A stretch of 64,000 nucleotides of DNA, from positions 187,429 to 251,428 of the forward strand of contig DASWYC010000002.1 in NCBI GenBank assembly GCA_036405175.1. The letters run 5' to 3'. The first letter of the stretch is position 1, and each line of letters opens with the position of its first letter. Positions 15,715-30,172 of the stretch are shown here, piece by piece. The notes beneath the pieces are model-generated. The model did no database searches. It worked only from the letters and a program-made list of their open reading frames with translations, and was not told where the DNA came from. The position numbers and the translations under genes were made by a program. The DNA is from Minisyncoccota bacterium (GTDB taxonomy: Bacteria > Patescibacteriota > Minisyncoccia > Phycocordibacterales > UBA1006).

Positions 15715-18700
15715 ATGATAGCCTGCCGTTATAATATGAATAGTCACAAAGTTACCTTCGCTGCAGTCTTACCAACTGTTTCTTATAAGGTTTTTCAGCG
15801 TCTTTTGACGTATTTTTTATTACTATTTTTTACCATTAATCCATTCGTCTCCATTGTATCTGCCGCTGAGATTGGTCATAATCCACAAGTCTCAAGCTAT
15901 GATACGGTGGTGGATGGTATTGGGCAGTCGCCGAATACTTCCGTAACTACTCCTTCTGGAGCTTTGCCCTTAAATACGCCAGTGGCACCTCTTTCATCTT
16001 CAGCACAAGTTGAAATTTCCTCAGGAGCATTTGTCGATGCATATGACTTTAATCTTCCTAAGGGACCTGGAGGTATTATCCCGCCCCTTGCACTTTCATA
16101 CGATTCACGTCGCAGAAATTATGATGGGTCTTTTGGTATAGGGTTTACTCTGGATATTCCGACCATTTCTCGTATTAATAAGTTTGGTATTGATCGCATG
16201 TATGAAGATAGCTCTTTTTCTTCCAGCATTCATGGTGAGTTGGTAAAGTTAAGTAAAGAACAAGATGCATACGGAGTGTATGGAGTGAAGAATGGTTATG
16301 GACGCTACATATTTAATCGAGACAATTCATGGAGTTATATCAACAAAGAAGGTGTAACCTATGTATTTGGGGCAAAGAGTACAGAGCGTGAATTTATCTC
16401 AACTGATGATACAAAGATTTCCCAATGGAATCTTTCAACAATTACTGATCCGTATAAGCACACGTATAGATATGTTTACGATAAGGTGTCAGAAAAACTT
16501 TTCCCAATTGCCATCTTGTATCCAAATGATATTTATAAAGTTGATATCGGGTGGAATCGTGCACCTCAAACGACGCTAACTTACGAAAATGGGTATGGAC
16601 AAGGTGTTGGTTCTCGTCGTGCTACTCAGGTTACGTTGAGCGCTTTAGGTGTTATGTATAGGACTCATGCATTTACATTCAATCCATCTACGCTCCGTTT
16701 GGAAAAAATTACAGATTCTGTGTTGGGTGATACAGTATTCACGTATACAGACATTGAAAATCCTCGCAATGCAGTTGTTGTAGAAAAGCCATTGTGGAAT
16801 GTCACTCAGCATCGTGTGGATATTGACGGTGATGGCCAGCAAGATATTTATCGAGTAGAAGCTAATACTACACCCACCAAGCGAACACTTACTATTGGCA
16901 CTACGGTATACCAGAACATGCCGCAGTTTGATGGCTTTGCTGATATAAATAATGACGGTGCTGTAGATGGATATAGTACTGATGGATGTTATCGAACGTA
17001 TCAGGGTAATGGGGTGTTTAGTGCAGCAATTTGTAATCTTGGGCTTATTGTTGGAGATAAGATGATTTTTGAAGATATTAATAATGATGGAATTATCGAA
17101 TATATTACTGCTGCTCAGGGGCACCTCAAAGTATATACGTTCAAGGATGGGAAATATACATTAAATCCATCTATGAAAGCTGTTGGGGGAACTATGTGGG
17201 ACGACCTAACAAATAGCTATATGGCAACTTTTGATGTGAACGGCGATAATCAAAAAGATATTTTGATTGGCGGCGATGCATATCTTAATAGAGGAGTGTT
17301 CTTTGAATTTTCAAATAACTACCAAGTAGATACTTCAAATAGATATTATTTCCCTAATGCCGGAAAGTTGGAATATCAATATATATTAACGCCCGTTGAT
17401 TATAACGGTGATGGTCTGCTTGAAATTAAAATCGATGAAAACTGGAAAGAACAATGTTCAAGTAGCGGTACAGGCTGGTGCGCAAAAGTGAATACTCAGA
17501 AATTCTTGAATAGCGGGCACGGATGGATTGCTGTTAATGTTGATTATTGGAATAACTTTACTTCATTTACTCAAGAAAAGGTTCCTCTTATTACAAAAGT
17601 TGCGGATGCTCGTCTTGAGACAGATGTTGTTTATGGACTCGAAGATATTGCAAAAAGTAATATTTTAGGAAGTATTAAGAAGGTTATTGTTGTGAAATCA
17701 ATCACAAGTCCATATAGTCAAACAAATTATAGTTACACCAATGGAAAGTACTACTTTAACCAGAAAGAACAAACCAGTGAGTTTGCCGGCTTTGAGACGG
17801 TGGTGGCCACTGACGGGTTAGGGCGCAAATCAATTTCGTATTTCCATCAGGGAAATGATACGAATACCGCCAAGGGAGAATTTGAAGATTCGCGCTATAA
17901 AATTGGGCGAACATTCCGCCAAGAATTCTATGGTGCTACCGGAACATTACTCAAAACTATCACCACTAAGTGGATTCAGGCGGATTTAGGATCTGAACGA
18001 TATTTGGTGGTGCCGGAATACACCTCACAGCTGATTGATGGTGTAGGTACGGCGGTTGGCTATACGTATGATACTGCGGTGGGAGAGTTGGTTCGCCAAT
18101 ATAATTTTGGTGACGCAACGGTGAATACTGACGGATCATTCACTGATGTTGGCATCGACCTTGTGATTACTAAATATCATTACAAAACCAATGGAGCGTT
18201 GGTAGTGCGTGATGAAGAGCAGCGTGAACGTAATGGTGAGCAGCTTTTTCATGGGCGCTATACATATAACCCGGCATTAACTCAACTGGTTAAAGAAGAA
18301 GTATCAGAAATGCCCGGATCATTTGCGAGCAGAACTTTCTCATACACAAGTGATGGAAGCTTGAGTAGCTCTACTGATTTTATGGGGAATACTACTACCT
18401 ATACATATGATAGCTATAAATTCCTTCCAAAGACAATCACTAATGCGCTGGGTCATATAACGACGCTTGAGTATAACTATGTAGTTCAAAAACCAATCAA
18501 AGTTGTTACACCTGATGCTATTACGTCAACCTATGTCTATGATCTGCTTGGTAATGAGCTTGAATACTACCGCAATGGAGTAAAAGAAAGAGTTGCTTCT
18601 GTTTCAAATAACTTTAAAGATTACACATATTCTCAAACTCTTAATACGAGTACCAGTATCCCTGCAAGTGACACATATGTTCAAAAAGTAGTTAATCATG

Positions 18701-21700
18701 ATGGGCTTATGCGTCCTGTCTATGAGCGTGATACTGACGGTAACCATATAGCGACTACATACGATCAGTATGGACGCGTGGCAGAGAAAACTATTCCCTA
18801 CACAGGTATGCTTACTGATAGTAAAAAAATAAGATTTACATATGACGATTTAGATCGTGTGATTACTCAGACTACTGTGGATGGCGTAACTCGCTATGCT
18901 TATAACGGACGTACGGTGACGATAACCAGTCCGTCGGACACGATAAAAATGATGGAATATGATAGCGCAGGTAACTTAATTGCGGCGACTGAAGGTGGAT
19001 TTACAACACGGTATACCTATAACGGTAATAATAATCTTGTTAAGCTCGTTGATCAGGAAGGAAATATTAAAGAACAGTCATTTAATCTGCTTGGTCGCAA
19101 ACTCATGACAACTGACCTTCGTAAATCAATAGCCGCTGACTATGGGCGATACTATTTTGTGTATGATCGCAACGGTAATCTTACTCAAGAAATAAAACCA
19201 GGAAATGTAACCGTACTTCATACTTATGATACGCTTGGCCGCTCAAAAACTACCACATCAGGAGAGGATACTATTACGTATACATATGATACCTGTATGC
19301 CAGGCAAACTCTGTTCAGAAACACGCGGAGCGTATTATTCAAAAACTTATACATATACTCCTAAGGGGCAAATAAAAACAGTTACTGAAAAGATTCATGA
19401 TAAAACCAGTATTGTTCAATATGAATATATGGGTGCAGGGGATTTGGTAACAAAAATTACCTACCCTGGCAATATTATCATCACATATGAATATCAAAAG
19501 GATAAATTGGTGCAGATAAAGAAAAATGGAACGTCGCTATTAAGCTCTGTTCAGTACGACTTTGGACGTCTTAAACAACTTCAGTTTGCAAACGGTCTTA
19601 AAACGGTAAATGCGTATAATGAAAATAATTTATATCGCCTTTCGCAGCGTGTGACTACAAATAGTGGAAATACAAAGTTACAAGATATTGGCTATACGTA
19701 TAACTCTTTAGGAATGATTGCTAGCCTTGTTGATTCATCAGATACTCCAACTAAAAAATCAGTTACCTACGTATATGATGATGTGCAGCGTCTCCTAACT
19801 GTTACATATACTATTAGCTCTGATACTACTACAGAAAACTTCACTTACTCTCCATCAGGTAACTTACTTAGTTCGCCTCGTGGAACAATGACGTATGGAG
19901 AAACTGTATCGCCTCAACAGATGAATATGGAGGTGATTGTACCCGAAGAAGAGCAAGCTCAGTCATCTCAGCAGGCCTCAGAGAATCCACCGATTATTCA
20001 TCCAGAAAACCCAGAGTCACCTATCATGCCAACGGTGCCTTCAGGAAATAGTAATGGTCGTAATGATGAAGTTTCATATCGCCATTCCAAATGGAACCCA
20101 GGTGGCTTGCTTAAGGCAACAATCGCATATGCAGAAGAAGTTAAAGTAGGTGAAGAGTCGGGCAGAAATGATCAAGAAATAGCATTAGATTTGGATCAAG
20201 AGCCCGAGTCATCGTTACAAAACCAAACTCTACAGGAAAAAGCCTTGTCTACCTGTGGTGAAGATGGAGTGTTAATCGCTGATTGTGTTATTTCACAACA
20301 ACAAGCTGATCCTATTGAATGTCTGCCGCCAGGTATTTTGGCATCTGGGCGATGCCTCATGCCCGAATCATGGACAAATTCAGAAACTTCTTGTCCTCCT
20401 GCATCTGAAAGATGCTCCGCTATAGTGAATGTTAACTGTTTGGAAAATGAAGTGCCCACCGATGGTGGATGTGCAAGAAAAGTGACGGCAATGCTTGCTT
20501 CTGACAGTGTCGACAGTGATCCGCTCACTCTTGATCAATTGGTTGATCGTCTGCGTGGCAAACTTATTACCATTTATCAAACAGGTAGTGGTATGCTCAT
20601 GACTCTTATTAATGGTGAATCAGGTGAAACAGGGGTGCGTATCCGTAATGATATTGCAGGCAAAGTTGTAATGCCACGCGATGCACAAACTATTGCCGTC
20701 AGCTTTGAAAAGGCGCTTTCCGTAGTACCAACTATTACTATTACACCTCAGGGTCCGATTACTGGAACACCATATATTACCAGCGTAAGCACTACTGGAT
20801 TCACAATTAATGTGACGTCGCCAGTGTTGCAAGATGTGATATTCCATTACTATGCATTTGGTATCCCAGAGTCAGAGTTACAAACTGTGGGAACCATTCC
20901 TCAGCCAACAACTCCAACCGAGCCGTCGGAAACTGAATGTCCTCTTGGATTTGAAAAAGATGCACAACAAAATTGTATTCCCGAGGTGGACACAAGTGAT
21001 CCTGTAGAAGTAGTACATCCACATGCCGTAACCTCCCAAGAAAAAGATGGGAGTGTTACAAGCTACACCTATGATGCGCGAGGTAATCTCTTGAATGATG
21101 GAACTTATACGTATGTGTGGAGTAATCTTAATGAATTGATGTCATCTCAAGATACTAATACAACAGTTCGTTATAACTACTCACCATCACATGATAAGAT
21201 TTATGAGGAAGAAGTGAGTGGTGACACAGGCTCACCGATGATTAATAAAACATACTTCTTTAGCTCTTTAATTAATCGTAATGGAATGATTGAGATTGCA
21301 TTGCCATACGGTATTGTGTTAAAAAATGGCACACCAATATATACGTTTACTGATCATCTTGGTACGGTACAGGTAATTGCTAATCAAGCCGGAGTCGCAA
21401 CTGATGTATTTGATACGTATGCTTATGGTGATGAGCGAGTGAAAACCGGTACGACAGATGCCAAGTACGCACTTCATGAGTACGACAATAATCTTATTTA
21501 TATGAAAGCGCGCTATTATGATCCAGCAACCGGTTCATTTATCTCACAGGACCCAACCGTCTTGCTTGCACCAGAACAATATATTGGGGATCCATTACAG
21601 CTTAATGCGTATGGATATGCGCGCGGGAATCCAGTGATGCATAATGATCCAGATGGAAATCAAGCTGTAGCTGCTATGGTAATTGCACCCGCTCTTGAAT

Positions 21701-22278
21701 CTTCTGCTATGCTTGCTCTTTTAGGAAGCTCTGCAACATGGTTGAGTAGGAGCCGCGATACGATGCTTCTGCCGCTTATGGGTATGCATTATTTGATGAG
21801 TAGGGCGACCGAGAATAACCAGCCGCTTCCTATTCCGCAAGGTTTATCGCTTCCATATGTGCCAAATCCTGAAGATCCAGATGATTTTCTAAAATCTGTA
21901 GATGAATCTAGACGAAATGGGCATGTGAGAAGTAAGCACGTCAAAAATAGTAGAAGTAATCTACTGCAGGAGCTTGAGAGTAATCCAAATTCTGATGGAG
22001 CAACAAGCTTTCGCTCAAGTAAGACTGCTGAGCAAGCTATTAAGAATGGTCTAAATAATAATCAAAGTCATATCAATAACTTTTTGAATAACGAAAGGGT
22101 GGGTGAAAGAACATTTATTGATTATAATACAGGCAATAGTATTGGGTATGGATACACAAAGTTGGCTACAGGAGAAATAATTAAAGTAAATTCAATTAAA
22201 GTAGTTAGAATTGTGATAGAAAAAATGTCGAGAGCGAATTATAAGATAATTACAAGTTTTCCAAAAGCTGGAATATAG
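15715..22278 (+). CDS. Giant secreted polymorphic toxin, Tc-toxin TcB/TcC-like. From N to C it has a SpvB-type domain, an FG-GAP-like beta-propeller, YD/RHS repeats with a Cys-rich insertion, an RHS repeat-associated core ending in DPDGN, and a variable C-terminal toxin domain
   Basis: 2187 aa. There is an N-terminal signal/TM segment (FLLLFFTINPFVSIVSAAEIG). The SpvB signature is SSGAFVDAYDFNLPKGPGGIIPPLALSYDSRRRNYDGSFGIGFTLDIPTISRI. FG-GAP-like repeats include DIDGDGQQDIY, DINNDGAVDGY, DINNDGIIEYI, DVNGDNQKDILIGG and DYNGDGLLEI. Many YD repeats are present (YTYD.., YVYDRNGNL.., YTYDARGNLL). The RHS core reads TDHLGTVQVIAN...ARYYDPATGSFISQDP...NAYGYARGNPVMHNDPDGN, followed by a 205-aa unique tail. 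Confidence 0.9.
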   Translation: MIACRYNMNSHKVTFAAVLPTVSYKVFQRLLTYFLLLFFTINPFVSIVSAAEIGHNPQVSSYDTVVDGIGQSPNTSVTTPSGALPLNTPVAPLSSSAQVEISSGAFVDAYDFNLPKGPGGIIPPLALSYDSRRRNYDGSFGIGFTLDIPTISRINKFGIDRMYEDSSFSSSIHGELVKLSKEQDAYGVYGVKNGYGRYIFNRDNSWSYINKEGVTYVFGAKSTEREFISTDDTKISQWNLSTITDPYKHTYRYVYDKVSEKLFPIAILYPNDIYKVDIGWNRAPQTTLTYENGYGQGVGSRRATQVTLSALGVMYRTHAFTFNPSTLRLEKITDSVLGDTVFTYTDIENPRNAVVVEKPLWNVTQHRVDIDGDGQQDIYRVEANTTPTKRTLTIGTTVYQNMPQFDGFADINNDGAVDGYSTDGCYRTYQGNGVFSAAICNLGLIVGDKMIFEDINNDGIIEYITAAQGHLKVYTFKDGKYTLNPSMKAVGGTMWDDLTNSYMATFDVNGDNQKDILIGGDAYLNRGVFFEFSNNYQVDTSNRYYFPNAGKLEYQYILTPVDYNGDGLLEIKIDENWKEQCSSSGTGWCAKVNTQKFLNSGHGWIAVNVDYWNNFTSFTQEKVPLITKVADARLETDVVYGLEDIAKSNILGSIKKVIVVKSITSPYSQTNYSYTNGKYYFNQKEQTSEFAGFETVVATDGLGRKSISYFHQGNDTNTAKGEFEDSRYKIGRTFRQEFYGATGTLLKTITTKWIQADLGSERYLVVPEYTSQLIDGVGTAVGYTYDTAVGELVRQYNFGDATVNTDGSFTDVGIDLVITKYHYKTNGALVVRDEEQRERNGEQLFHGRYTYNPALTQLVKEEVSEMPGSFASRTFSYTSDGSLSSSTDFMGNTTTYTYDSYKFLPKTITNALGHITTLEYNYVVQKPIKVVTPDAITSTYVYDLLGNELEYYRNGVKERVASVSNNFKDYTYSQTLNTSTSIPASDTYVQKVVNHDGLMRPVYERDTDGNHIATTYDQYGRVAEKTIPYTGMLTDSKKIRFTYDDLDRVITQTTVDGVTRYAYNGRTVTITSPSDTIKMMEYDSAGNLIAATEGGFTTRYTYNGNNNLVKLVDQEGNIKEQSFNLLGRKLMTTDLRKSIAADYGRYYFVYDRNGNLTQEIKPGNVTVLHTYDTLGRSKTTTSGEDTITYTYDTCMPGKLCSETRGAYYSKTYTYTPKGQIKTVTEKIHDKTSIVQYEYMGAGDLVTKITYPGNIIITYEYQKDKLVQIKKNGTSLLSSVQYDFGRLKQLQFANGLKTVNAYNENNLYRLSQRVTTNSGNTKLQDIGYTYNSLGMIASLVDSSDTPTKKSVTYVYDDVQRLLTVTYTISSDTTTENFTYSPSGNLLSSPRGTMTYGETVSPQQMNMEVIVPEEEQAQSSQQASENPPIIHPENPESPIMPTVPSGNSNGRNDEVSYRHSKWNPGGLLKATIAYAEEVKVGEESGRNDQEIALDLDQEPESSLQNQTLQEKALSTCGEDGVLIADCVISQQQADPIECLPPGILASGRCLMPESWTNSETSCPPASERCSAIVNVNCLENEVPTDGGCARKVTAMLASDSVDSDPLTLDQLVDRLRGKLITIYQTGSGMLMTLINGESGETGVRIRNDIAGKVVMPRDAQTIAVSFEKALSVVPTITITPQGPITGTPYITSVSTTGFTINVTSPVLQDVIFHYYAFGIPESELQTVGTIPQPTTPTEPSETECPLGFEKDAQQNCIPEVDTSDPVEVVHPHAVTSQEKDGSVTSYTYDARGNLLNDGTYTYVWSNLNELMSSQDTNTTVRYNYSPSHDKIYEEEVSGDTGSPMINKTYFFSSLINRNGMIEIALPYGIVLKNGTPIYTFTDHLGTVQVIANQAGVATDVFDTYAYGDERVKTGTTDAKYALHEYDNNLIYMKARYYDPATGSFISQDPTVLLAPEQYIGDPLQLNAYGYARGNPVMHNDPDGNQAVAAMVIAPALESSAMLALLGSSATWLSRSRDTMLLPLMGMHYLMSRATENNQPLPIPQGLSLPYVPNPEDPDDFLKSVDESRRNGHVRSKHVKNSRSNLLQELESNPNSDGATSFRSSKTAEQAIKNGLNNNQSHINNFLNNERVGERTFIDYNTGNSIGYGYTKLATGEIIKVNSIKVVRIVIEKMSRANYKIITSFPKAGI

Positions 22279-22699: not shown

Positions 22700-22713
22700 A
22701 CTAGCCAAATTTG

Positions 22714-23322
22714 ATGAAAGGTGTACACTACAAGAGTATGAAGAAATACACCAATATCATCATTCTTTTAAGTATTATCATAATTGGACTTGTAGTTTAT
22801 ATTATCGCTAATAACCGTAAGAGCGTTGACGTTGACACCATGACCACATCGGAGGAAATGGTAACAACGCCCGTTGGTGAACAATCCACCACTACTACGT
22901 CTTCAACACCGGTAAAAAAGACTACAACCTCAACACCTAAGAAGACAACCACCGCAACAACGTCTCCAACACCATCAATTAACAAGACATTGTTGGAGAA
23001 TAATCCCTACGTACCATACGGATTCTATATCCAAACACCAACCGGGTATCGTTTGCGACCTTCAACTGATTCTGTAACCGGAAACGTAACGGTTGGATAT
23101 CCAGATGGAGTAATTATGTATGTTAAAGATGCCGCTAAGTATGAGCAATCAACCGTTGTTCCAAAGTATAAATATCTAGGAACAACTAAGGTTGGAGGAA
23201 ATACCTTTAAGACCTATACCTACGGAACCATGACCTACTACTGGATCACTGATGGCAATGAAGGATACGAAATCATTACCACCAAAAAAGATTCATTAAG
23301 TACGTTTGAGATTTTAGAATAA
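22714..23322 (+). CDS. Membrane-anchored protein with a Thr/Ser/Pro-rich (mucin-like) linker and a beta-rich C-terminal domain
   Basis: The N-terminal TM is IIILLSIIIIGLVVYII, then TTPVGEQSTTTTSSTPVKKTTTSTPKKTTTATTSPTPS, then a roughly 110-aa Tyr/Gly/Thr-rich domain. The track start at 22711 is TTG, and an ATG lies at 22714. Confidence 0.5.
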   Translation: MKGVHYKSMKKYTNIIILLSIIIIGLVVYIIANNRKSVDVDTMTTSEEMVTTPVGEQSTTTTSSTPVKKTTTSTPKKTTTATTSPTPSINKTLLENNPYVPYGFYIQTPTGYRLRPSTDSVTGNVTVGYPDGVIMYVKDAAKYEQSTVVPKYKYLGTTKVGGNTFKTYTYGTMTYYWITDGNEGYEIITTKKDSLSTFEILE

Positions 23323-23429: not shown

Positions 23430-24029
23430 ATGCAGCTGATTAATATATTTCATAATCAAGTCTTTGCTCAGGCTATGATTGTATTGATATTTCTCCTTAT
23501 AGTAGCCGTATGGTCTTACTTTGGAAATATTGATAAAACAAGCCCTGGGTACATCGCTAAACAAATTAAAAAACAGGATAAGCGGAATATTCGATATATA
23601 AAAGATATCCTAAAAGGTCACTACATAAAACTAACCAAGGAGCAAATAGCTCAATTTATCGAAAAGTATTCCGTATGGGTCCAACAAGAAAAACAGCTTG
23701 TATCAACAACTTCTAAAGAGCGATTATTCAGACAAGGACAATATCGCAATGAATTTAAAGTTAGTTTTATGTTTCTTGATGAATTATTGCCCGAAGAAGA
23801 GTCTCCGTTCAAGCTTGCCTTTAAAGATGCATTTACTGAACCATTTCCTTCAACTCATGATATGGACGATTGGGCATTTGTAAATAAAGTAACAGATATT
23901 CTTGCTTTGAAAGGATATAACCCTCGGGAAGAACGCCTTGTTGCTTTGGTACACAAAAAAGAACATTTTGTGAATCATGATATTACAACGGGAATCATTA
24001 TTTTTGATATCTACCTTCTTGAAGAATAA
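23430..24029 (+). CDS. Hypothetical membrane-anchored protein (199 aa)
   Basis: N-terminal TM (FAQAMIVLIFLLIVAVWSYF). I recognise no family. Confidence 0.45.
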   Translation: MQLINIFHNQVFAQAMIVLIFLLIVAVWSYFGNIDKTSPGYIAKQIKKQDKRNIRYIKDILKGHYIKLTKEQIAQFIEKYSVWVQQEKQLVSTTSKERLFRQGQYRNEFKVSFMFLDELLPEEESPFKLAFKDAFTEPFPSTHDMDDWAFVNKVTDILALKGYNPREERLVALVHKKEHFVNHDITTGIIIFDIYLLEE

Positions 24030-24082: not shown

Positions 24083-24373
24083 TTATTCCCCAAAAGAATT
24101 TAATCTAAAGGTAAAGAAGGGAACGTGCTTTGCACGGCGCTTCTTTAAAATATTATGGCGGATGTCAGAGATATTACGTTCCAAAAAGAGCATTACTTCG
24201 GGTGCTTTTTCTGTTGGGAGCACAGAAACATAGATCAACATATCAGAACGATCACGTCCTGCTTTTGCTCCGGTTAATGTAATAAGCGATGTTTTATTAG
24301 AAAGTTTTTGAACTTCCTCGGCTACATCTTTCAACATCTCTTCTTCAAATGATTTATCTCGATAATTACTCAT
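24083..24373 (-). CDS. rbfA: Ribosome-binding factor A
   Basis: Directly downstream of infB. The pattern (...VQKLSNKTSLITLTGAKAGRDRSDMLIYVSVLP...HNILKKRRAKHVPFFTFRLN) matches RbfA. The track start at 24385 is TTG, and an ATG lies at 24373. Confidence 0.7.
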   Translation of the reverse strand: MSNYRDKSFEEEMLKDVAEEVQKLSNKTSLITLTGAKAGRDRSDMLIYVSVLPTEKAPEVMLFLERNISDIRHNILKKRRAKHVPFFTFRLNSFGE

Positions 24374-25850
24374 ATGCAATTTCAAATGATTCTAATAAGC
24401 TTCCTTCTTCGATCTCGCCTTTAACTTCAACCATAGCACCAAATTCACCATCCTTTAAAACCTGAATAGGTGCTTTGGCTTGCTGCATGGTCATAAGTTT
24501 TCCATACACGCTTACGCCTTCTTGATTGGTAATTTTAATGCGATCGCCAGTCTTGAGTTGTCCTTCTTTAAGTGATCCACCAATCAGGTGTTCGGTTTTC
24601 TTTGAGCTAAATACTTTTAAGATCTTTGCCGATCCATTAATACGTTCGGTTTTTTCACGTTTAATGCGTTTTTCGCGTTCTTCTTCAAGATATTCGGTTG
24701 CCTTATAGATAATATTAAATGATTTAATCGTTACATTTTCCTGAGCAAGATCAGCAGCGGCTTTATCTACGCCAACGTTAAAGGCAATCACAATAGCGCC
24801 GTTATCGGTGAGGGCAAGTTTAATATCTGCTTCTGATACAGTTCCAACACCTGAGTAAACAATCTTATAGAGAACTCTGTCTGATGAAAGTGTTGAAATA
24901 ATTGATTCAAGTGCTTCACGAGTTCCGGCAACATCAGCTTTAATAATGAGAGGAACTACCGCACGTGTATCATCTTCATCAACAGCGGTAAATGCACGTT
25001 CCTTTTCAAGAAGTTCACGTGTTTCTGCAATAAAGTTTTCTGCTTCTTTTTTGTCTTTGCATACAATAAATTCTGATCCAGCTTCTGGAAGATTATCAAA
25101 TCCAACGAGTGTAACAGGGGTAGAGAAGGTTGCTGATTCAATTGGCTTTTGATACGTAGTATCAAGCACAATACGGCTTGGTGTCATAGCAAGACCGGCA
25201 ACAATAATATCACCACGCTTGAGCGTTCCTTTTTTAATGATGAGTGTTGCGCTGATTCCTTTTTTATCATCTCTGTGTGCTTCAATCACGAATCCTTCTG
25301 CTGGCGCATCTTCTTCGGCAGTAAATTCTTCTAGTTGCGCAACCAATAAAATCATATCAAGCAACTCAGAAACTCCCGTTCCTTTTTTTGCAGAGATCTT
25401 TGCTACGGGAGTATCTCCTCCGTAGCCTTCACAATACACTTCATGTTCAGCAAGTGCCCAAAGAACGCGATCAATATTCGCATCAGGAAGATCAATTTTA
25501 TTCACCGCCACCACAAACGGCACCTTATTTTCTTTAATAGTTTGAAGCGCTTCAAGCGTCTGAGGTTTGATACCTTCAACAGCAGACACAATTAAAATCG
25601 CAATATCTGCGATGGTTGCTCCGCGTGAACGCATGCCAGAAAATGCTGCGTGACCAGGAGTGTCAATAAAGGTGATAAGAGAGGAGTATCCTTCCGGGGT
25701 GGTGTGAGAAACTTCATACGCAGAAAGATACTGGGTAATTCCTCCAGCTTCACCGGCAACAATGTTGGTTTTTCTGATGAAATCGAGAAGGGTTGATTTG
25801 CCGTGGTCAACGTGTCCCATGATTGCAACAATAGGTGGTCGAGTCTTCAT
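24366..25850 (-). CDS. infB: Translation initiation factor IF-2, short form of about 494 aa with the N-terminal half missing
   Basis: Opens with the G-domain: RPPIVAIMGHVDHGKSTLLD, DTPGH, NKID. Domains II to IV follow to the C-terminus. The track start at 25868 is TTG, and the likely ATG is at 25850 (MKTRPP). Confidence 0.9.
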   Translation of the reverse strand: MKTRPPIVAIMGHVDHGKSTLLDFIRKTNIVAGEAGGITQYLSAYEVSHTTPEGYSSLITFIDTPGHAAFSGMRSRGATIADIAILIVSAVEGIKPQTLEALQTIKENKVPFVVAVNKIDLPDANIDRVLWALAEHEVYCEGYGGDTPVAKISAKKGTGVSELLDMILLVAQLEEFTAEEDAPAEGFVIEAHRDDKKGISATLIIKKGTLKRGDIIVAGLAMTPSRIVLDTTYQKPIESATFSTPVTLVGFDNLPEAGSEFIVCKDKKEAENFIAETRELLEKERAFTAVDEDDTRAVVPLIIKADVAGTREALESIISTLSSDRVLYKIVYSGVGTVSEADIKLALTDNGAIVIAFNVGVDKAAADLAQENVTIKSFNIIYKATEYLEEEREKRIKREKTERINGSAKILKVFSSKKTEHLIGGSLKEGQLKTGDRIKITNQEGVSVYGKLMTMQQAKAPIQVLKDGEFGAMVEVKGEIEEGSLLESFEIAYE

Positions 25851-25918
25851 ATATATGTATATCCCCAAGTAGTTTGACGATTTTCAGATTATAATGCAAA
25901 ATAATAAAATAAGCAATT

Positions 25919-27169
25919 ATGATGAATTTCTTCAAAAAACTTCACCACAAGCGCCAATTGGCGAAGTTTTTTGATTATGCCGCGCATACTCCCATGCGTG
26001 ATGAGGTGATACAAGTAATGGAAGATGAAATCCGTGAGTACGGCAATCCGTCATCAATTCATGGTTATGGAGTAGCTGCTCAGAAAAAGATTGAAGATGC
26101 CCGCACTCGCATTGCAAATATTTTTAAAGTTTCATCTAGTGAGATAATTTTTACCCCAGGAGGAACCGCATCAATCAACTTGGCAATCCAAGGAGTATTG
26201 GGTGCATTCTCTCAACAATTTCCCGATAGAACCCCTCATATTATTACCAGTAATGTTGAGCACTCTGCCGTACGTCAGACCGTACGCAATTTAACGGAGC
26301 TTGGCGTGATAACTTCAACAGAACTGCCCGTAAATGAATTTGGTATAGTAGCTGCTGCGGATGTTATTAGCGCGGTTACCGAAGATACCGTATTAGTAAC
26401 GATGATGATGGTGAACAACGAATACGGAGCAGTCTTTCCGATTCAAGAAATTGGAAAAGCATTATTTGTATATAAAAAAGAAACGAGTGTGCAGTATCCA
26501 CTCTTTCATGTTGATGCATCACAGGCATTTTTACCGTTTGAAATTATTCCGCGATCACTGCATATTGATGTGTTGTCATGTTCAAGTGCAAAAACCTACG
26601 GACCAGCACATGGGGGCGTTTTGTATGCACGCAAGGGAATTAAATTAAGTGAAATTATGTATGGCGGATCGCAAGAACAAAAATTGTGGCCGGGTACACA
26701 ATCGGTGGCAGATATAGTTGCGGCAGTTGCATCGTTTGAGTTAGCTGCTCGTGAACGTGAACAAGAAGTTATGCGCGTGTCAGAATTGCAATCATATGTG
26801 CGCGAGCAATTGCAAAGTTCTTTGGCGCAAGAATTTGGATTACAATTTTCTTTACCTCTTGAAAATGTATCACCATATATTTTGCATGGATACATTGAAG
26901 GAGTTTCAAGTGAGCGTTTATTATTGGAGCTTGATGCGTACGGATATTCAATCAGTGCACAGGCAGCATGTGATTCTGATAAAGAAGGAATTTCAGAAGC
27001 AGTAAAAGCGCTCTGGTCTGCACAAGGAAATAGTTCTTATGAAGGAGACCGTGCCGTATTTAGAATTTCATTTGGATTATATTCAAACAAAAAGGGAATT
27101 GATGGGTTTATCCAAGCGCTCAATAACATCTTAAAGAAGTTTCAGCAAGAACAAGGGTTACTTAAATAA
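25919..27169 (+). CDS. Class V aminotransferase / cysteine desulfurase-like (NifS/IscS family) protein
   Basis: DYAAHTPMRDEV...GNPSSIHGYG...IIFTPGGTASINLAIQG...SCSSAKTYGPAHGGVLYARKG fits the fold-type I PLP cysteine-desulfurase pattern. I did not confirm the catalytic Cys loop. Confidence 0.65.
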   Translation: MMNFFKKLHHKRQLAKFFDYAAHTPMRDEVIQVMEDEIREYGNPSSIHGYGVAAQKKIEDARTRIANIFKVSSSEIIFTPGGTASINLAIQGVLGAFSQQFPDRTPHIITSNVEHSAVRQTVRNLTELGVITSTELPVNEFGIVAAADVISAVTEDTVLVTMMMVNNEYGAVFPIQEIGKALFVYKKETSVQYPLFHVDASQAFLPFEIIPRSLHIDVLSCSSAKTYGPAHGGVLYARKGIKLSEIMYGGSQEQKLWPGTQSVADIVAAVASFELAAREREQEVMRVSELQSYVREQLQSSLAQEFGLQFSLPLENVSPYILHGYIEGVSSERLLLELDAYGYSISAQAACDSDKEGISEAVKALWSAQGNSSYEGDRAVFRISFGLYSNKKGIDGFIQALNNILKKFQQEQGLLK

Positions 27170-27289
27170 AAGCCTCACTAGTAAGACTTTTATTTGCATG
27201 AGGTAATATTGACATTATATAGTATTAGTGATATAATATTTATCTAATCTTTAATAAAATATTCATTCATCTTAAAACATATTTTTCCA

Positions 27290-28252
27290 ATGAAAAATTT
27301 AATTTTCCTAATTGCTTTCTTTGTAAGCACTACAACTTTTGCCCAATATTATTCTGAGACAGCCCCAGACTTTATTACAGTCAAAGGGTCCGCAAGATTT
27401 GGAGATGGCTGGGGTAACTCAAGCTCATTTGGTAAGAAGAGTTTCGCCGCAGGCCTCAACAATACCGTAACTGGTGAAAATTCAATTGCGTGCGGTGTTG
27501 GATTAAATATTCGAACACCTAATCAGGTTGTTCTGGGTACGTATAACATTGCTTACGGCAGTAGCACAAGTGGTACAACTGGCACAGACCCGTTAGTAAT
27601 AATAGGGAATGGCGTTGCCTCATGGGCACCAAGTAATGCCATGGTTATATTGCGGAATGGCAATATCGGTATTGGACCACATACTTGGCCACCAACAGCG
27701 CAATTACACATAGCTTACGACGAGTATAAGAATCCAGATGAAGCTGCCTTCAGAGCTGATGGAAGTACATACAGTACTACTATACATGATGATATGTATG
27801 AAGACGTCAACATCAATGGTGGTAACGATTACTCATTTGTGAACCTCGCCCGACCTGCTGGTCAAAGGGTTGGCATTGGTGCTAATCCCGATAACGGACC
27901 TGAAAAACTTTATGTTAAAGGTCATATGAAGGTCACCGGTTATGTTGGGTCAACCGAAGGGTTTTATATCTATAATACTGAACCCACAACAGGCTCTTTG
28001 GTACCAAATCAAAAAAGTTTCCTACAGAGACTAAATGAGATGGCGGTTGTATCTTATAAGAAAGATTCAGTAGTTGTTAAGCAATATCTCAGTATTAATC
28101 CAGCTGAAACATCAATTGTTAGCAGTGTTGGCAAAACTGAAAAGGCGAAGGACTATATACAAGTAGTAAACACTCTTGTTGGCGCGGTTAAGGAACTTGC
28201 CGAAGGGAACAAGCTACTTAAAGCAGAAATTGAAAAATTAAAAAAGAAGTAA
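27290..28252 (+). CDS. Secreted fibre-like protein with a YadA-head-like/tail-fibre-like repeat region and a C-terminal domain like the endosialidase chaperone (peptidase S74) with a coiled coil
   Basis: The signal peptide is MKNLIFLIAFFVSTTTFAQ. Degenerate S.A.G..N.A.G..S repeats (KKSFAAGLNNTVTGENSIACGVGLN) are present. NAMVILRNGNIGIGP...AQLHIA resembles tail-fibre collar segments. The C-terminus (LNEMAVVSYKKD...LVGAVKELAEGNKLLKAEIEKLKKK) resembles the S74 intramolecular chaperone domain. Confidence 0.5.
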   Translation: MKNLIFLIAFFVSTTTFAQYYSETAPDFITVKGSARFGDGWGNSSSFGKKSFAAGLNNTVTGENSIACGVGLNIRTPNQVVLGTYNIAYGSSTSGTTGTDPLVIIGNGVASWAPSNAMVILRNGNIGIGPHTWPPTAQLHIAYDEYKNPDEAAFRADGSTYSTTIHDDMYEDVNINGGNDYSFVNLARPAGQRVGIGANPDNGPEKLYVKGHMKVTGYVGSTEGFYIYNTEPTTGSLVPNQKSFLQRLNEMAVVSYKKDSVVVKQYLSINPAETSIVSSVGKTEKAKDYIQVVNTLVGAVKELAEGNKLLKAEIEKLKKK

Positions 28253-28271
28253 GATAGTAATCTTTTATGGA

Positions 28272-28305
28272 GAGCCATACGCAATTGGGTGTATGGTTCT
28301 TTTTA
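28272..28305 (+). terminator. Intrinsic terminator
   Basis: gagccatac-gcaattgggt-gtatggttc followed by tttttatt. Confidence 0.6.
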
Positions 28306-28394
28306 TTGACAAGATTACATATATATGGTAATATGTCTTTGAATCATATTACCAATAAAATCATAAATTTCTCACTTTAAATTCAAATAAATCA

Positions 28395-30035
28395 ATGAAA
28401 AAACAACTATTGTTCGCATTACTGTGCACTCTCTCTGTAAGTGCTTTTGCTCAATTTGAAGCATGTCCAGGTCTCATTTGGACAAAGGGTGCCGTTAAAA
28501 TTGGTGCAGAACCTAATTACTATCCTTTGCCAAAAGAGGGAGAATTGCTGCAAGTTCGTGGTAGTGGATACGTAACAGACGACCTCACCGCAACGAGAAT
28601 CTATTCTCAAATGAGTGATAGAGGTGTTCCTGTTAGTAGCCCCTATCCTTCGTTAAATAAAGTATTGAGAATAGGTGTTTTATCAAGTATTGAATTTGGT
28701 AAACTCGTAACTCGACTTAATGGGGCAGATTTAGAAAGAGAATTTCCTAATGGTGTTACTGAAAGGAAGACAGTTGGGAAGTTTTTTAACTACGATGAGA
28801 TGAACGCAGCAGTGATTAACTCAATCCAAGCACTTTATGAAAAGGTTGTTAATCTGGAAGCAGAGAACACAGCTCTTAAATCAAGGGTTGCTAAACTTGA
28901 AAAACAAAATGACCCTTGTCTTAAAGTTACTGCGCGTATTAGTGAGAGTGCTGATAATCCTACATCAAAGACTCTTATTGCCAATAGGTCCACTGCTTCC
29001 TCTGCAATGCTTATTCATGCATTTACTATTAAACCCAAGGATGGAGATGCTGTATTAAAAAACATTCCTGTAAAAATTACCCTTGCCGAAGTGATGGGTG
29101 GAACTCAAACCATCAATTCTTCAGAAGGCTTCGGAGCGTTATTTAATGCAATGGTTGAGTCTGTCTGGGTCGAAGTAAATGGTCACTTTGCTACTGAAGC
29201 TATTGCCTCGATCTCGCACACTTCGACCACAGGTCAAGTTTCAGATGTGGAAGTTAATAGTATTAACTTTGATATCAATGGTAATATAACCATTCCAAAC
29301 GGATCAACCGCTGTGGTTAAAGTTTATGTAAGACTGGCACCAATGCCTGATAATGGAGGCGCTATGAATGCTAACTCAGGAGTAACGATCTCTTCGTCGG
29401 TAAATGGAGACTCAATAGTTCTTGGAACCCCTAATTGCGATGCTATCCCGCCATTCTCAATAACAGGATCATCGACGGGTTATACCCATACTATTCGCAC
29501 CGCGGGTGTTATCTCCGTTATGGGTACTGCCTCCATAGAACCCACTAAGTATATCGAGACAGGCAAAACAAAGTATGTGGTATATACGATTCCGATAACA
29601 CTTACGGCTGTCAGTAAGACTTTCTATGTGGGACAATCGGCTGAATGGGCTACTCGTTCAGGTTCAGGTACTGCTGCTGTTGCATTTGCACTTCAATCAG
29701 CATCTGCGCCCAGTACGGATATAACCAGTCTGGATGAATGCGCTATTACAAATGGGTCAGGTTCTTCAGGGGCAGTTGGGTATATATTTTCGTCACCGCA
29801 GGCCCCTGTGCAAAATCTCGGATATCGTATCGATGAAGGCGTATCGAGAACTTTCATACTCCAGGTGGTGGTAAGTCCGGGTTCAGGTCCTGAAATTCAG
29901 AATGAAGCTCTTCGTGTAGCGCTTAAATCTATTAAATATTACACGAACGATTCGCTTTCGGCTGGTGAGACAATAGATATTGTTCGCATTGTTGAAAATA
30001 ATAGGACTGACTTTGAGCTATATATTGTCAACTAA
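28395..30035 (+). CDS. Secreted protein with an N-terminal segment like the endosialidase chaperone, a coiled coil, and a roughly 350-aa beta-rich C-terminal domain
   Basis: The signal peptide is MKKQLLFALLCTLSVSAFAQ. SDRGVPV...LEREFPNGV...GKFFNYDEMNAAVINSIQALYEKVVNLEAENTALKSRVAKLEKQ parallels the S74 chaperone consensus (GFIAQEV..VFPELV...VNY..L.P.L.EAIKEL...LKA.LEKL). A long Ser/Thr/Gly/Val-rich domain follows. Confidence 0.5.
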   Translation: MKKQLLFALLCTLSVSAFAQFEACPGLIWTKGAVKIGAEPNYYPLPKEGELLQVRGSGYVTDDLTATRIYSQMSDRGVPVSSPYPSLNKVLRIGVLSSIEFGKLVTRLNGADLEREFPNGVTERKTVGKFFNYDEMNAAVINSIQALYEKVVNLEAENTALKSRVAKLEKQNDPCLKVTARISESADNPTSKTLIANRSTASSAMLIHAFTIKPKDGDAVLKNIPVKITLAEVMGGTQTINSSEGFGALFNAMVESVWVEVNGHFATEAIASISHTSTTGQVSDVEVNSINFDINGNITIPNGSTAVVKVYVRLAPMPDNGGAMNANSGVTISSSVNGDSIVLGTPNCDAIPPFSITGSSTGYTHTIRTAGVISVMGTASIEPTKYIETGKTKYVVYTIPITLTAVSKTFYVGQSAEWATRSGSGTAAVAFALQSASAPSTDITSLDECAITNGSGSSGAVGYIFSSPQAPVQNLGYRIDEGVSRTFILQVVVSPGSGPEIQNEALRVALKSIKYYTNDSLSAGETIDIVRIVENNRTDFELYIVN

Positions 30036-30069
30036 CGTTTAAAACTAAAAACAAATTATAAAAGCTAGA

Positions 30070-30105
30070 GAGCCTTTCGCACTAATTGTGAAAGGTTCTT
30101 TTTAT
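30070..30105 (+). terminator. Intrinsic terminator
   Basis: gagcctttcgcac-taatt-gtgaaaggttc followed by tttttatttc. Confidence 0.6.
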
Positions 30106-30172
30106 TTCTCAAAAATCTAGCAAATGAAAACAAAATGAAGCTTTTGACAGTAAAGTAACGCCCGTAGATTTC

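Follow-up and report, generated by a model that had tools for sequence, protein, structure and literature searches.

Two adjacent, putatively secreted fibre-like proteins with Bacteroidota relatives in a Candidatus Paceibacterota genome

We analysed a 64-kb stretch of DNA (the window; 64,000 nucleotides of contig DASWYC010000002.1) from a metagenome-assembled genome of Candidatus Paceibacterota (candidate phyla radiation, CPR), which represents one population and holds the locus on a 668-kb contig. Within it, we focus on two adjacent genes, here called A and B. The reading towards which we lean, with modest confidence, is that both encode Sec-exported and independently transcribed surface-fibre proteins that stem from a family of the Bacteroidota type, carry a catalytically dead S74 segment and, in the case of B, are chimeric in build. 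An earlier note, drawn up from the letters of the stretch alone, had proposed two adjacent reading frames with leaders ending in FAQ, YadA-head-like repeats and a collar in the first, coiled coils in both, a beta-rich C-terminal domain in the second, terminators of their own and a position between a cysteine-desulfurase-like gene and clpB. All of these features were recovered: the two frames exactly (320 and 546 amino acids, aa), the leaders from the sequence and as helices in AlphaFold2 (AF2) models, the repeats and the collar through a family profile, the coiled coils (residues 283-319 in A and 134-176 in B), the domain of B (~368 aa), both terminators, and the flanks as Aminotran_5 and ClpB.

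Protein A and its Bacteroidota relatives

Judged by its sequence, A is a shortened and highly diverged member of a Bacteroidota (Dyadobacter-type) YadA-head/S74 fibre family. Among 5.8 billion proteins its only non-self relatives were three from Bacteroidota, with E from 4e-7 to 1e-4, including two Dyadobacter 'tail fiber domain-containing proteins' that carry both PF13884 (Peptidase_S74) and PF05658 (YadA_head), and its head and neck are 42% identical, over ~100 aa, to those of the Dyadobacter protein P0003 (D. endophyticus). A family hidden Markov model (HMM) built from 56 members, with A left out, recovered residues 43-142 of A at 72.9 bits (E 9e-25), a span that takes in the head repeats and the neck SNAMVILRNGNIGIG, the motif with the strongest conservation among the homologs; the Pfam YadA_head model gave A 14.2 bits, below the gathering cut-off of 25 that its homologs pass. 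By the same family HMM, head repeats are absent from B. Alignment with MAFFT placed A colinear with the family from the signal peptide through the C-terminal helix, and its AF2 model was of high confidence over residues 41-145 (predicted local distance difference test, pLDDT, 81-96 over 41-140) and in the terminal helix 283-319 (pLDDT >82). The best Foldseek matches of this model were the YadA-like heads of trimeric autotransporter adhesins (TAAs; AtaA, BoaA, CbpF, BpaA and SadA), with E about 1 and not significant, though in keeping with what the sequence shows; searches of PDB sequences with A and B returned nothing useful (a faint UspA1 match).

Set beside the Dyadobacter-type family (e.g., P0003), A has the same AQ-ending leader, YadA-like head and SNAxTILRNGNIGIG neck, and the same colinear order down to the ...AVKEL helix. 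In contrast to the family, A is about half the length, holds 2-3 head repeats, has an unrecognisable middle, has lost the catalytic half of S74 together with SDxRxK, and resides in a monoderm CPR genome and not in diderm Bacteroidota; B, for its part, is headless and bears an unrelated C-terminal domain. A search seeded with P0003 gathered more than 600 family members, often as several paralogs on chromosome-sized contigs, and the relatives of A are a large, multi-copy chromosomal family of Bacteroidota, not phage genes. Since all of these relatives come from Bacteroidota, and A stands alone among CPR proteins, the most economical reading would be that A was gained horizontally from Bacteroidota and then strongly diverged.

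The third relative of A, and its best match (P0002), adjoins a Reg_prop/Y_Y_Y hybrid kinase, a gene type typical of Bacteroidota. At this locus (L010, 4438-7808) the fibre gene encodes a YadA head without an S74 domain; the genes of the kinase and of a LuxR-type response regulator lie before it and that of a PTL_trimer/FG-GAP_2 protein after it, an arrangement that suggests a regulated fibre gene cluster. Two likenesses noticed by eye, namely between the first mature residues of A (APDFITVKGSAR) and those of the family (APQQFSFQGVAR), and between LIWTKGAVKIG of B and LIWYPxKAAFRxG, found no backing in the family HMM and carry no weight here.

The distal S74-like segment and its zipper

What can be defended of the remaining part of the likeness is that both proteins appear to have kept, as an S74/ICA remnant, the oligomerising core alone; neither carries an S74 domain of the peptidase or chaperone kind. 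A profile made from 105 family S74 C-termini matched residues 110-170 of B at 14.3 bits and residues 281-318 of A at 11.6 bits, in the same columns (scores equalled by no more than 1 of 3000 shuffles, the best of which gave 8.5 and 11.3, respectively), and ranked A and B as the top two among the 136 open reading frames of at least 80 aa in the window. In hhalign comparisons with the family S74 profile, B reached a probability of 78% (E 2e-5) and A one of 44%, against 0.2-2.7% for reversed sequences. In both proteins the profile matches reach, through the same columns, upstream of the helix into an FPxxV...NY segment.

The family profile also matches solved structures of phage tail-fibre chaperones and ICA domains (6f45, 8jov, 7dc3 from MyRF and 3gud from phi29), and the columns kept in A and B align with a segment of MyRF inside its alpha4 helix (N670-K705). 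This helix forms a triple coiled coil, described as the main driving force of ICA trimerisation, with F,V,T,I at its a and N,L,L,L at its d positions (PMC8326128). The VGAVKEL of A occurs identically in MyRF alpha4; a four-heptad helix of the alpha4 type can be read in both A and B, at the sequence level only, and their zippers stand in the same register, each burying an Asn in its third heptad.

The chimeric build of protein B

As far as its sequence tells, B is a chimera, in which an A-like leader, an S74 remnant and a zipper are followed by a domain of the type found in another protein of this genome. Residues 179-541 of B share 50% identity (E 2e-110) with the C-terminal part of P0006 (HEY1041233.1, 676 aa), which is encoded on the same 668-kb contig outside the window (L001, 10001-12031), among neighbours (ftsK, recA, an M48 peptidase and rplJ/rplL) none of which is related to A. 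P0006 consists of a signal peptide, an N-terminal PG_binding_1 domain, a Pro/Thr linker, an extra region of ~200 aa and the B-type C-terminal domain. No further relatives of this domain were found in 185,579 species genomes or in JGI metagenomes, Pfam gave no match to it, and in all databases searched the family that it forms with P0006 appears restricted to this genome. Foldseek comparisons of the B model retrieved generic tandem Ig-like proteins (TM <=0.2), usable only as an indication of a 'beta-sandwich-rich' region; the model, of low confidence, suggests no more than tandem beta-sandwiches.

The kinship of the N-terminal part of B with A is visible at several levels. The leaders and first mature residues of the two proteins are similar (z=11; the mature part alone z=5, 0/2000 shuffles), residues 186-320 of A are colinear, with weak similarity, with residues 20-180 of B (z=4.0, 5/2000 shuffles), and a short echo at the DNA level links the codons of GIGANPDN and IGAEPNY. 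The simplest history would be one in which an A-like unit was duplicated, the head was lost and a P0006-type domain was inserted between zipper and terminator.

The S74 module of A lies C-terminal to head and neck, as would be expected of a chaperone placed after a fibre; that of B has ~50 residues before it and ~370 after it, which does not fit a chaperone role. The earlier note had called this N-terminal placement unusual, and we agree; it would follow from domain shuffling, because an A-like unit was apparently fused to the P0006-type domain. A precedent for the order is MyRF, where a long C-terminal region comes after the ICA domain (PMC8326128).

Standing of the S74 assignment and loss of the catalytic dyad

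Several observations weigh against the reading of A and B as surface fibres with an S74 remnant. The Pfam model PF13884 (gathering score 22 bits; 52-58 bits for the positive controls P0003, P0004 and P0019), which is limited to the opening 56 residues of the chaperone region (427-482 in P0003, SDRRLK to FPELV), had no match at E<=10 in whole A, whole B or their sub-regions, and a custom HMM of the same span gave -0.4 and 0.1 bits, values equalled or bettered by more than 10% of shuffles. Without the zipper, the hhalign probability dropped to 11% (B) and 0.4% (A), which places most of the S74 signal in the amphipathic helix. No homologs of the N-terminal module of B (residues 20-180) were detectable by an exhaustive HMMER search of 1.84 billion representatives, which returned B itself and two spurious matches, one to a repeat protein and one to a sequence that is coiled coil throughout. 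The AF2 model of B, built on a two-sequence alignment, was of low confidence throughout (pLDDT 41) and brought no structural confirmation, and residues 150-283 of A were likewise modelled with low confidence, their fold not being resolved. No LPxTG motif, transmembrane segment or PG-binding domain that would account for retention at the surface was found in either protein. Moreover, according to the GCN4 rules of Harbury et al., Leu at d combined with beta-branched residues or Asn at a reportedly favours dimers in isolated zippers; the precedent of the ICA domains speaks for trimers, but trimerisation of A and B is not assured.

In a rival reading, the N-terminal module of B, and perhaps the C-terminus of A, is not derived from S74 and would consist of a lineage-specific region with a generic leucine zipper, whose matches arise from coiled-coil periodicity and composition. 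The missing PF13884 match, the first half of the module scoring no better than shuffles, the collapse of the hhalign probability upon removal of the zipper, the mere coiled-coil noise of the exhaustive search and the uninformative model of B all speak for it. However, the reversed sequences keep composition and periodicity and yet score near zero, the matches continue upstream of the helix in the same columns of both proteins, A belongs to the family independently (through its head and neck, and colinear with it), the VGAVKEL of A is that of MyRF alpha4, and an SDR of B is spaced as expected from the FP motif. We consider this rival unlikely, though it is the one to be taken most seriously. 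The S74-like domains announced by the earlier note thus stand for the distal part and the helix, by profile and by hhalign, whereas the PF13884 check stayed blank and the catalytic half is unrecognisable. Searches of A and B with Pfam, PHROGs and NCBIfam gave sub-threshold YadA_head and coiled-coil noise only. A likeness between PYPSLNK of B and PYPSLSK of P0003 was rare among shuffles (3/5000) and was set aside, having been spotted post hoc and lacking conservation across the family.

In the columns of the catalytic SDrRLK, A reads NTEPTT (both Ser and Lys gone) and B reads SDRGVP (Ser and Asp kept, Lys gone); the SDxRxK motif, present in 105 of 121 family members, is absent from both. Neither Ser nor Lys can be dispensed with in endoNF, MyRF or Bdellovibrio Bd3182 (PMC8326128, PMC10769870). 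Because the Ser-Lys dyad is lost in A and in B, no self-cleavage is expected of either, and the auto-cleaving chaperone whose dyad the earlier note proposed to check is not predicted. One could still imagine auto-processing with non-canonical residues, whereby A would shed its C-terminus and B would be cut near residue 73, given that B keeps Ser73-Asp74-Arg75 where the family has SDR and that a Ser...Lys pair (SLVPNQK) can be read in A shortly downstream of the aligned site. We hold this to be very improbable: B has Pro or a gap where the Lys should stand, A has substitutions at both positions of the dyad, residues of which each was needed in the three studied proteins would have had to be replaced, and a cut in B would leave a 'mature' peptide of ~50 aa, which makes no functional sense.

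Export and transcription

Both leaders show a Lys-containing n-region, a hydrophobic core and an FAQ end, on the basis of which A and B would be secreted via Sec and their leaders then cleaved. Each gene is preceded by a sigma-70-like promoter and followed by an intrinsic terminator (Table 1), and the two are therefore predicted to be transcribed independently of each other. The promoter calls come from a consensus scan, and promoter-like sites are no commoner in the region than in shuffles. The two terminators are homologous (GAGAGCC...GGTTCTTTTTATT, 79% identity) and differ by compensatory substitutions in the stem (CAUAC/GUAUG versus CUUUC/GAAAG); their tail GGTTCTTTTTATT was found nowhere else in the window. 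Upstream of A, the aminotransferase gene has its stop codon overlapped by a near-perfect palindrome (27164-27195; AAATAAAAGCCTCACT / AGTAAGACTTTTATTT), which is probably the terminator of that gene and separates it from the promoter of A.

Table 1. Features of the A/B locus, with positions counted from the first letter of the window
Feature	Positions	Strand	Description
Sigma-70-like promoter of A (predicted)	27209-27237	+	TTGACA-17-TATAAT, TG-extended; 12/12 consensus matches; 53 nt upstream of ATG
Gene A	27290-28252	+	320 aa; HEY1041337.1, VGE63_01280; GenBank name 'hypothetical protein'; putative secreted protein, a miniaturised form within the YadA-head/S74 fibre family
Signal peptide of A (predicted)	27290-27346	+	aa 1-19, MKNLIFLIAFFVSTTTFAQ; read from sequence, ends TTTFAQ; AF2 helix 2-19
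Head repeats and neck/collar of A	27416-27715	+	aa 43-142; motif SNAMVILRNGNIGIG...PTAQLHIA
Putative distal S74/ICA remnant and four-heptad zipper of A	28130-28249	+	aa 281-320; a = V,V,N,I; d = L,L,L,L; contains VGAVKEL
Intrinsic terminator of A (predicted)	28269-28307	+	14-bp stem, -19.3 kcal/mol, z -6.0, then T-run
Sigma-70-like promoter of B (predicted)	28306-28334	+	TTGACA-17-TAATAT, TG-extended; consensus scan
Gene B	28395-30035	+	546 aa; HEY1041338.1; GenBank name 'bZIP transcription factor'; putative secreted chimeric protein
Signal peptide of B (predicted)	28395-28454	+	aa 1-20, MKKQLLFALLCTLSVSAFAQ; read from sequence, ends SAFAQ; AF2 helix 3-15; hydrophobic window
Putative S74-like remnant of B	28611-28910	+	aa 73-172; supported part aa 104-172; zipper 144-171, a = I,V,N,V; d = L,L,L,L
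Beta-rich C-terminal domain of B	28929-30032	+	aa 179-546, 368 aa; 50% identical to the C-terminus of P0006
Intrinsic terminator of B (predicted)	30067-30106	+	15-bp stem, -19.8 kcal/mol, z about -5

Genomic context and the question of a phage origin

The gene order RbfA, IF-2, Aminotran_5, A, B, ClpB was repeated in five independent Logan assemblies (SRR11449177-187), and since it is identical in all of them the locus is not a chimera of assembly or binning. Over ~15 kb on either side, A and B are surrounded by housekeeping genes (MurJ, ThrRS, IF-2, ClpB and MiaA) and an RHS toxin, and no phage-like genes were found within these limits, in line with the earlier note. The GC and GC3 contents of both genes are native to the genome; no flanking repeats or integrase were found around them, and neither the flanks nor GC and GC3 bear a sign of recent insertion. 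No paralogs of A or B occur elsewhere in the window. A survey of synteny through the flanking aminotransferase gave as its sole match a Lachnospiraceae gene (31% identical) and thus no related genome for comparison.

These surroundings bear on the possibility that A and B are remnants or cargo of a prophage or another mobile element, i.e. tail-fibre or tailspike genes. The architecture with an S74 chaperone is typical of phage fibres, the intact S74 region of the donor family matches more than 1150 phage tail-fibre records, and three tRNA genes are present in the window; but the tRNA genes are all at least 3.6 kb away, beyond clpB, neither protein had a match in 50,697 phage genomes or in IMG/VR contigs, PHROGs yielded only marginal matches to families without known function, the surrounding genes encode IF-2, RbfA, an aminotransferase, ClpB and MiaA, composition is native, and the nearest kin are chromosomal genes that Bacteroidota carry in several copies. 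We therefore deem a prophage origin very unlikely. The likeness to phage fibres seen in the earlier note holds insofar as there are 'tail fiber domain-containing' relatives with YadA heads and S74, although these are chromosomal Bacteroidota proteins; the idea of a 'domesticated phage fibre' had to be given up for A and B, with their cellular relatives, and would at best describe the ancient history of the donor family and not that of this locus.

To the GenBank name of B, which would make it a bZIP-type transcription factor, we give practically no credence: the sub-threshold Pfam matches behind it (bZIP_1, 16.7 bits; bZIP_2, 14.4 bits; residues 143-173) fall short of the gathering thresholds (27.6 and 22.3 bits) and cover the zipper half only (model positions 27-57 of 64), with no basic DNA-binding region, and B has a signal peptide and a 368-aa domain of extracellular type in common with a peptidoglycan-binding protein. 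The name is a mis-annotation triggered by the leucine zipper (aa 144-171).

Further features of the surroundings were noted in passing. The RHS-type polymorphic toxin gene (15715-22278, forward strand; 2187 aa with SpvB, FG-GAP and RHS repeats) lies ~5 kb upstream of A, and its product ends in a toxin domain annotated as 'bacterial CdiA-CT RNase A' (PF18431, 7e-20); two small unannotated reading frames after it (22711-23322 and 23430-24029) could be immunity genes. IF-2 (24366-25868, reverse strand) is only ~500 aa long (494 aa in the Logan assemblies) and is devoid of the long N-terminal region that it has in many bacteria.

Comparison with known fibre systems

With the S74/ICA domains of endoNF (3GW6), T5 pb1 (4UW8), phi29 gp12 (3GUD) and MyRF (7DC3), A and B have in common the distal segment and the alpha4-type helix, with Leu at d and beta-branched residues plus one polar residue at a. 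They differ from these domains in having neither a PF13884 match nor the Ser-Lys dyad, and the module of B, situated ~50 residues from the mature N-terminus, does not cap a long triple beta-helix.

The closest functional analogy is offered by the mosaic adhesive trimeric (MAT) fibres of Bdellovibrio bacteriovorus, which are cellular, secreted, mosaic-tip adhesins of a bacterium that attacks bacteria; some of them end in S74, others (NS74) have beta-sandwich domains instead, and capping-loop motifs of the GIG...P...L type upstream of S74 recall the family of A and B (PMC10769870). In contrast to A (320 aa) and B (with ~50 aa before its S74-like part), MATs are ~1000 aa long, with long coiled-coil stalks and a conserved N-terminal beta-rich domain of ~130 aa, and their S74 is catalytically active, S782A blocking cleavage (PMC10769870), whereas the dyad of A and B is lost. 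Searches of the PDB gave no sequence match of A or B to MAT proteins, the Foldseek match to Bd1334 was not significant, and A and B are not members of the MAT family.

The type of head repeat links A with the TAAs (YadA, UspA1, BoaA and AtaA). Unlike these, A and B occur in a monoderm without an outer membrane and would owe their oligomerisation to an S74-derived helix and not to an anchor and stalk; Pfam found no YadA_anchor C-terminal beta-barrel in A, whose C-terminus is a helix ending in KLKKK.

Proposed function and significance

The donor family combines an AQ-ending signal peptide, a YadA-like left-handed beta-roll head, an RNGNIGIG neck, an S74/ICA chaperone and a C-terminal helix. In A, the catalytic half of S74 would have decayed, while the distal part and a four-heptad alpha4-type zipper would have been kept. 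B would be of A-like origin (as its kind of leader, S74 remnant, zipper register and terminator suggest), would have lost the head, and would have acquired a 368-aa beta-rich domain copied from, or common to, a peptidoglycan-anchored surface protein of the same genome. Both proteins would be exported through Sec and relieved of their leaders, would then oligomerise, probably as trimers, by means of the uncleaved S74 remnant and zipper acting as a permanent oligomerisation module, and would finally present a small YadA-like head in the case of A, or tandem beta-sandwiches in that of B, for the binding of some surface. In short, A and B probably serve as non-cleaving oligomeric surface fibres or adhesins, and the proposal of the earlier note that they are secreted proteins of a fibre- or adhesin-like kind is supported, as is their relation to proteins with YadA-like heads and S74 chaperones.

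A bolder scenario, to which we attach little probability, is that a Paceibacterota episymbiont took up a fibre adhesin of Bacteroidota (possibly from its host or a neighbour), turned S74 into a permanent trimeriser and reused it in B, thereby displaying a CPR surface domain as a trimer; given the common register of their zippers and the Asn buried in each, A and B might even co-assemble as a two-ended bridging fibre for host attachment. By our own reading of the e and g positions of the zippers, salt bridges would favour homo-oligomers of B over A-B pairs.

To our knowledge, host recognition and attachment by CPR/Patescibacteria outside the Saccharibacteria are essentially unknown, and the hosts of Paceibacterota are mostly unidentified. 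The locus described here supplies two concrete candidates for secreted CPR surface fibres, both apparently under strong promoters, and a possible link by horizontal transfer to soil Bacteroidota, and it corrects the database name 'bZIP transcription factor' of B. An S74/ICA chaperone that, as it appears, was pared to the helix that drives trimerisation and put to new use through domain shuffling would furthermore bear on how fibre modules evolve outside phages.

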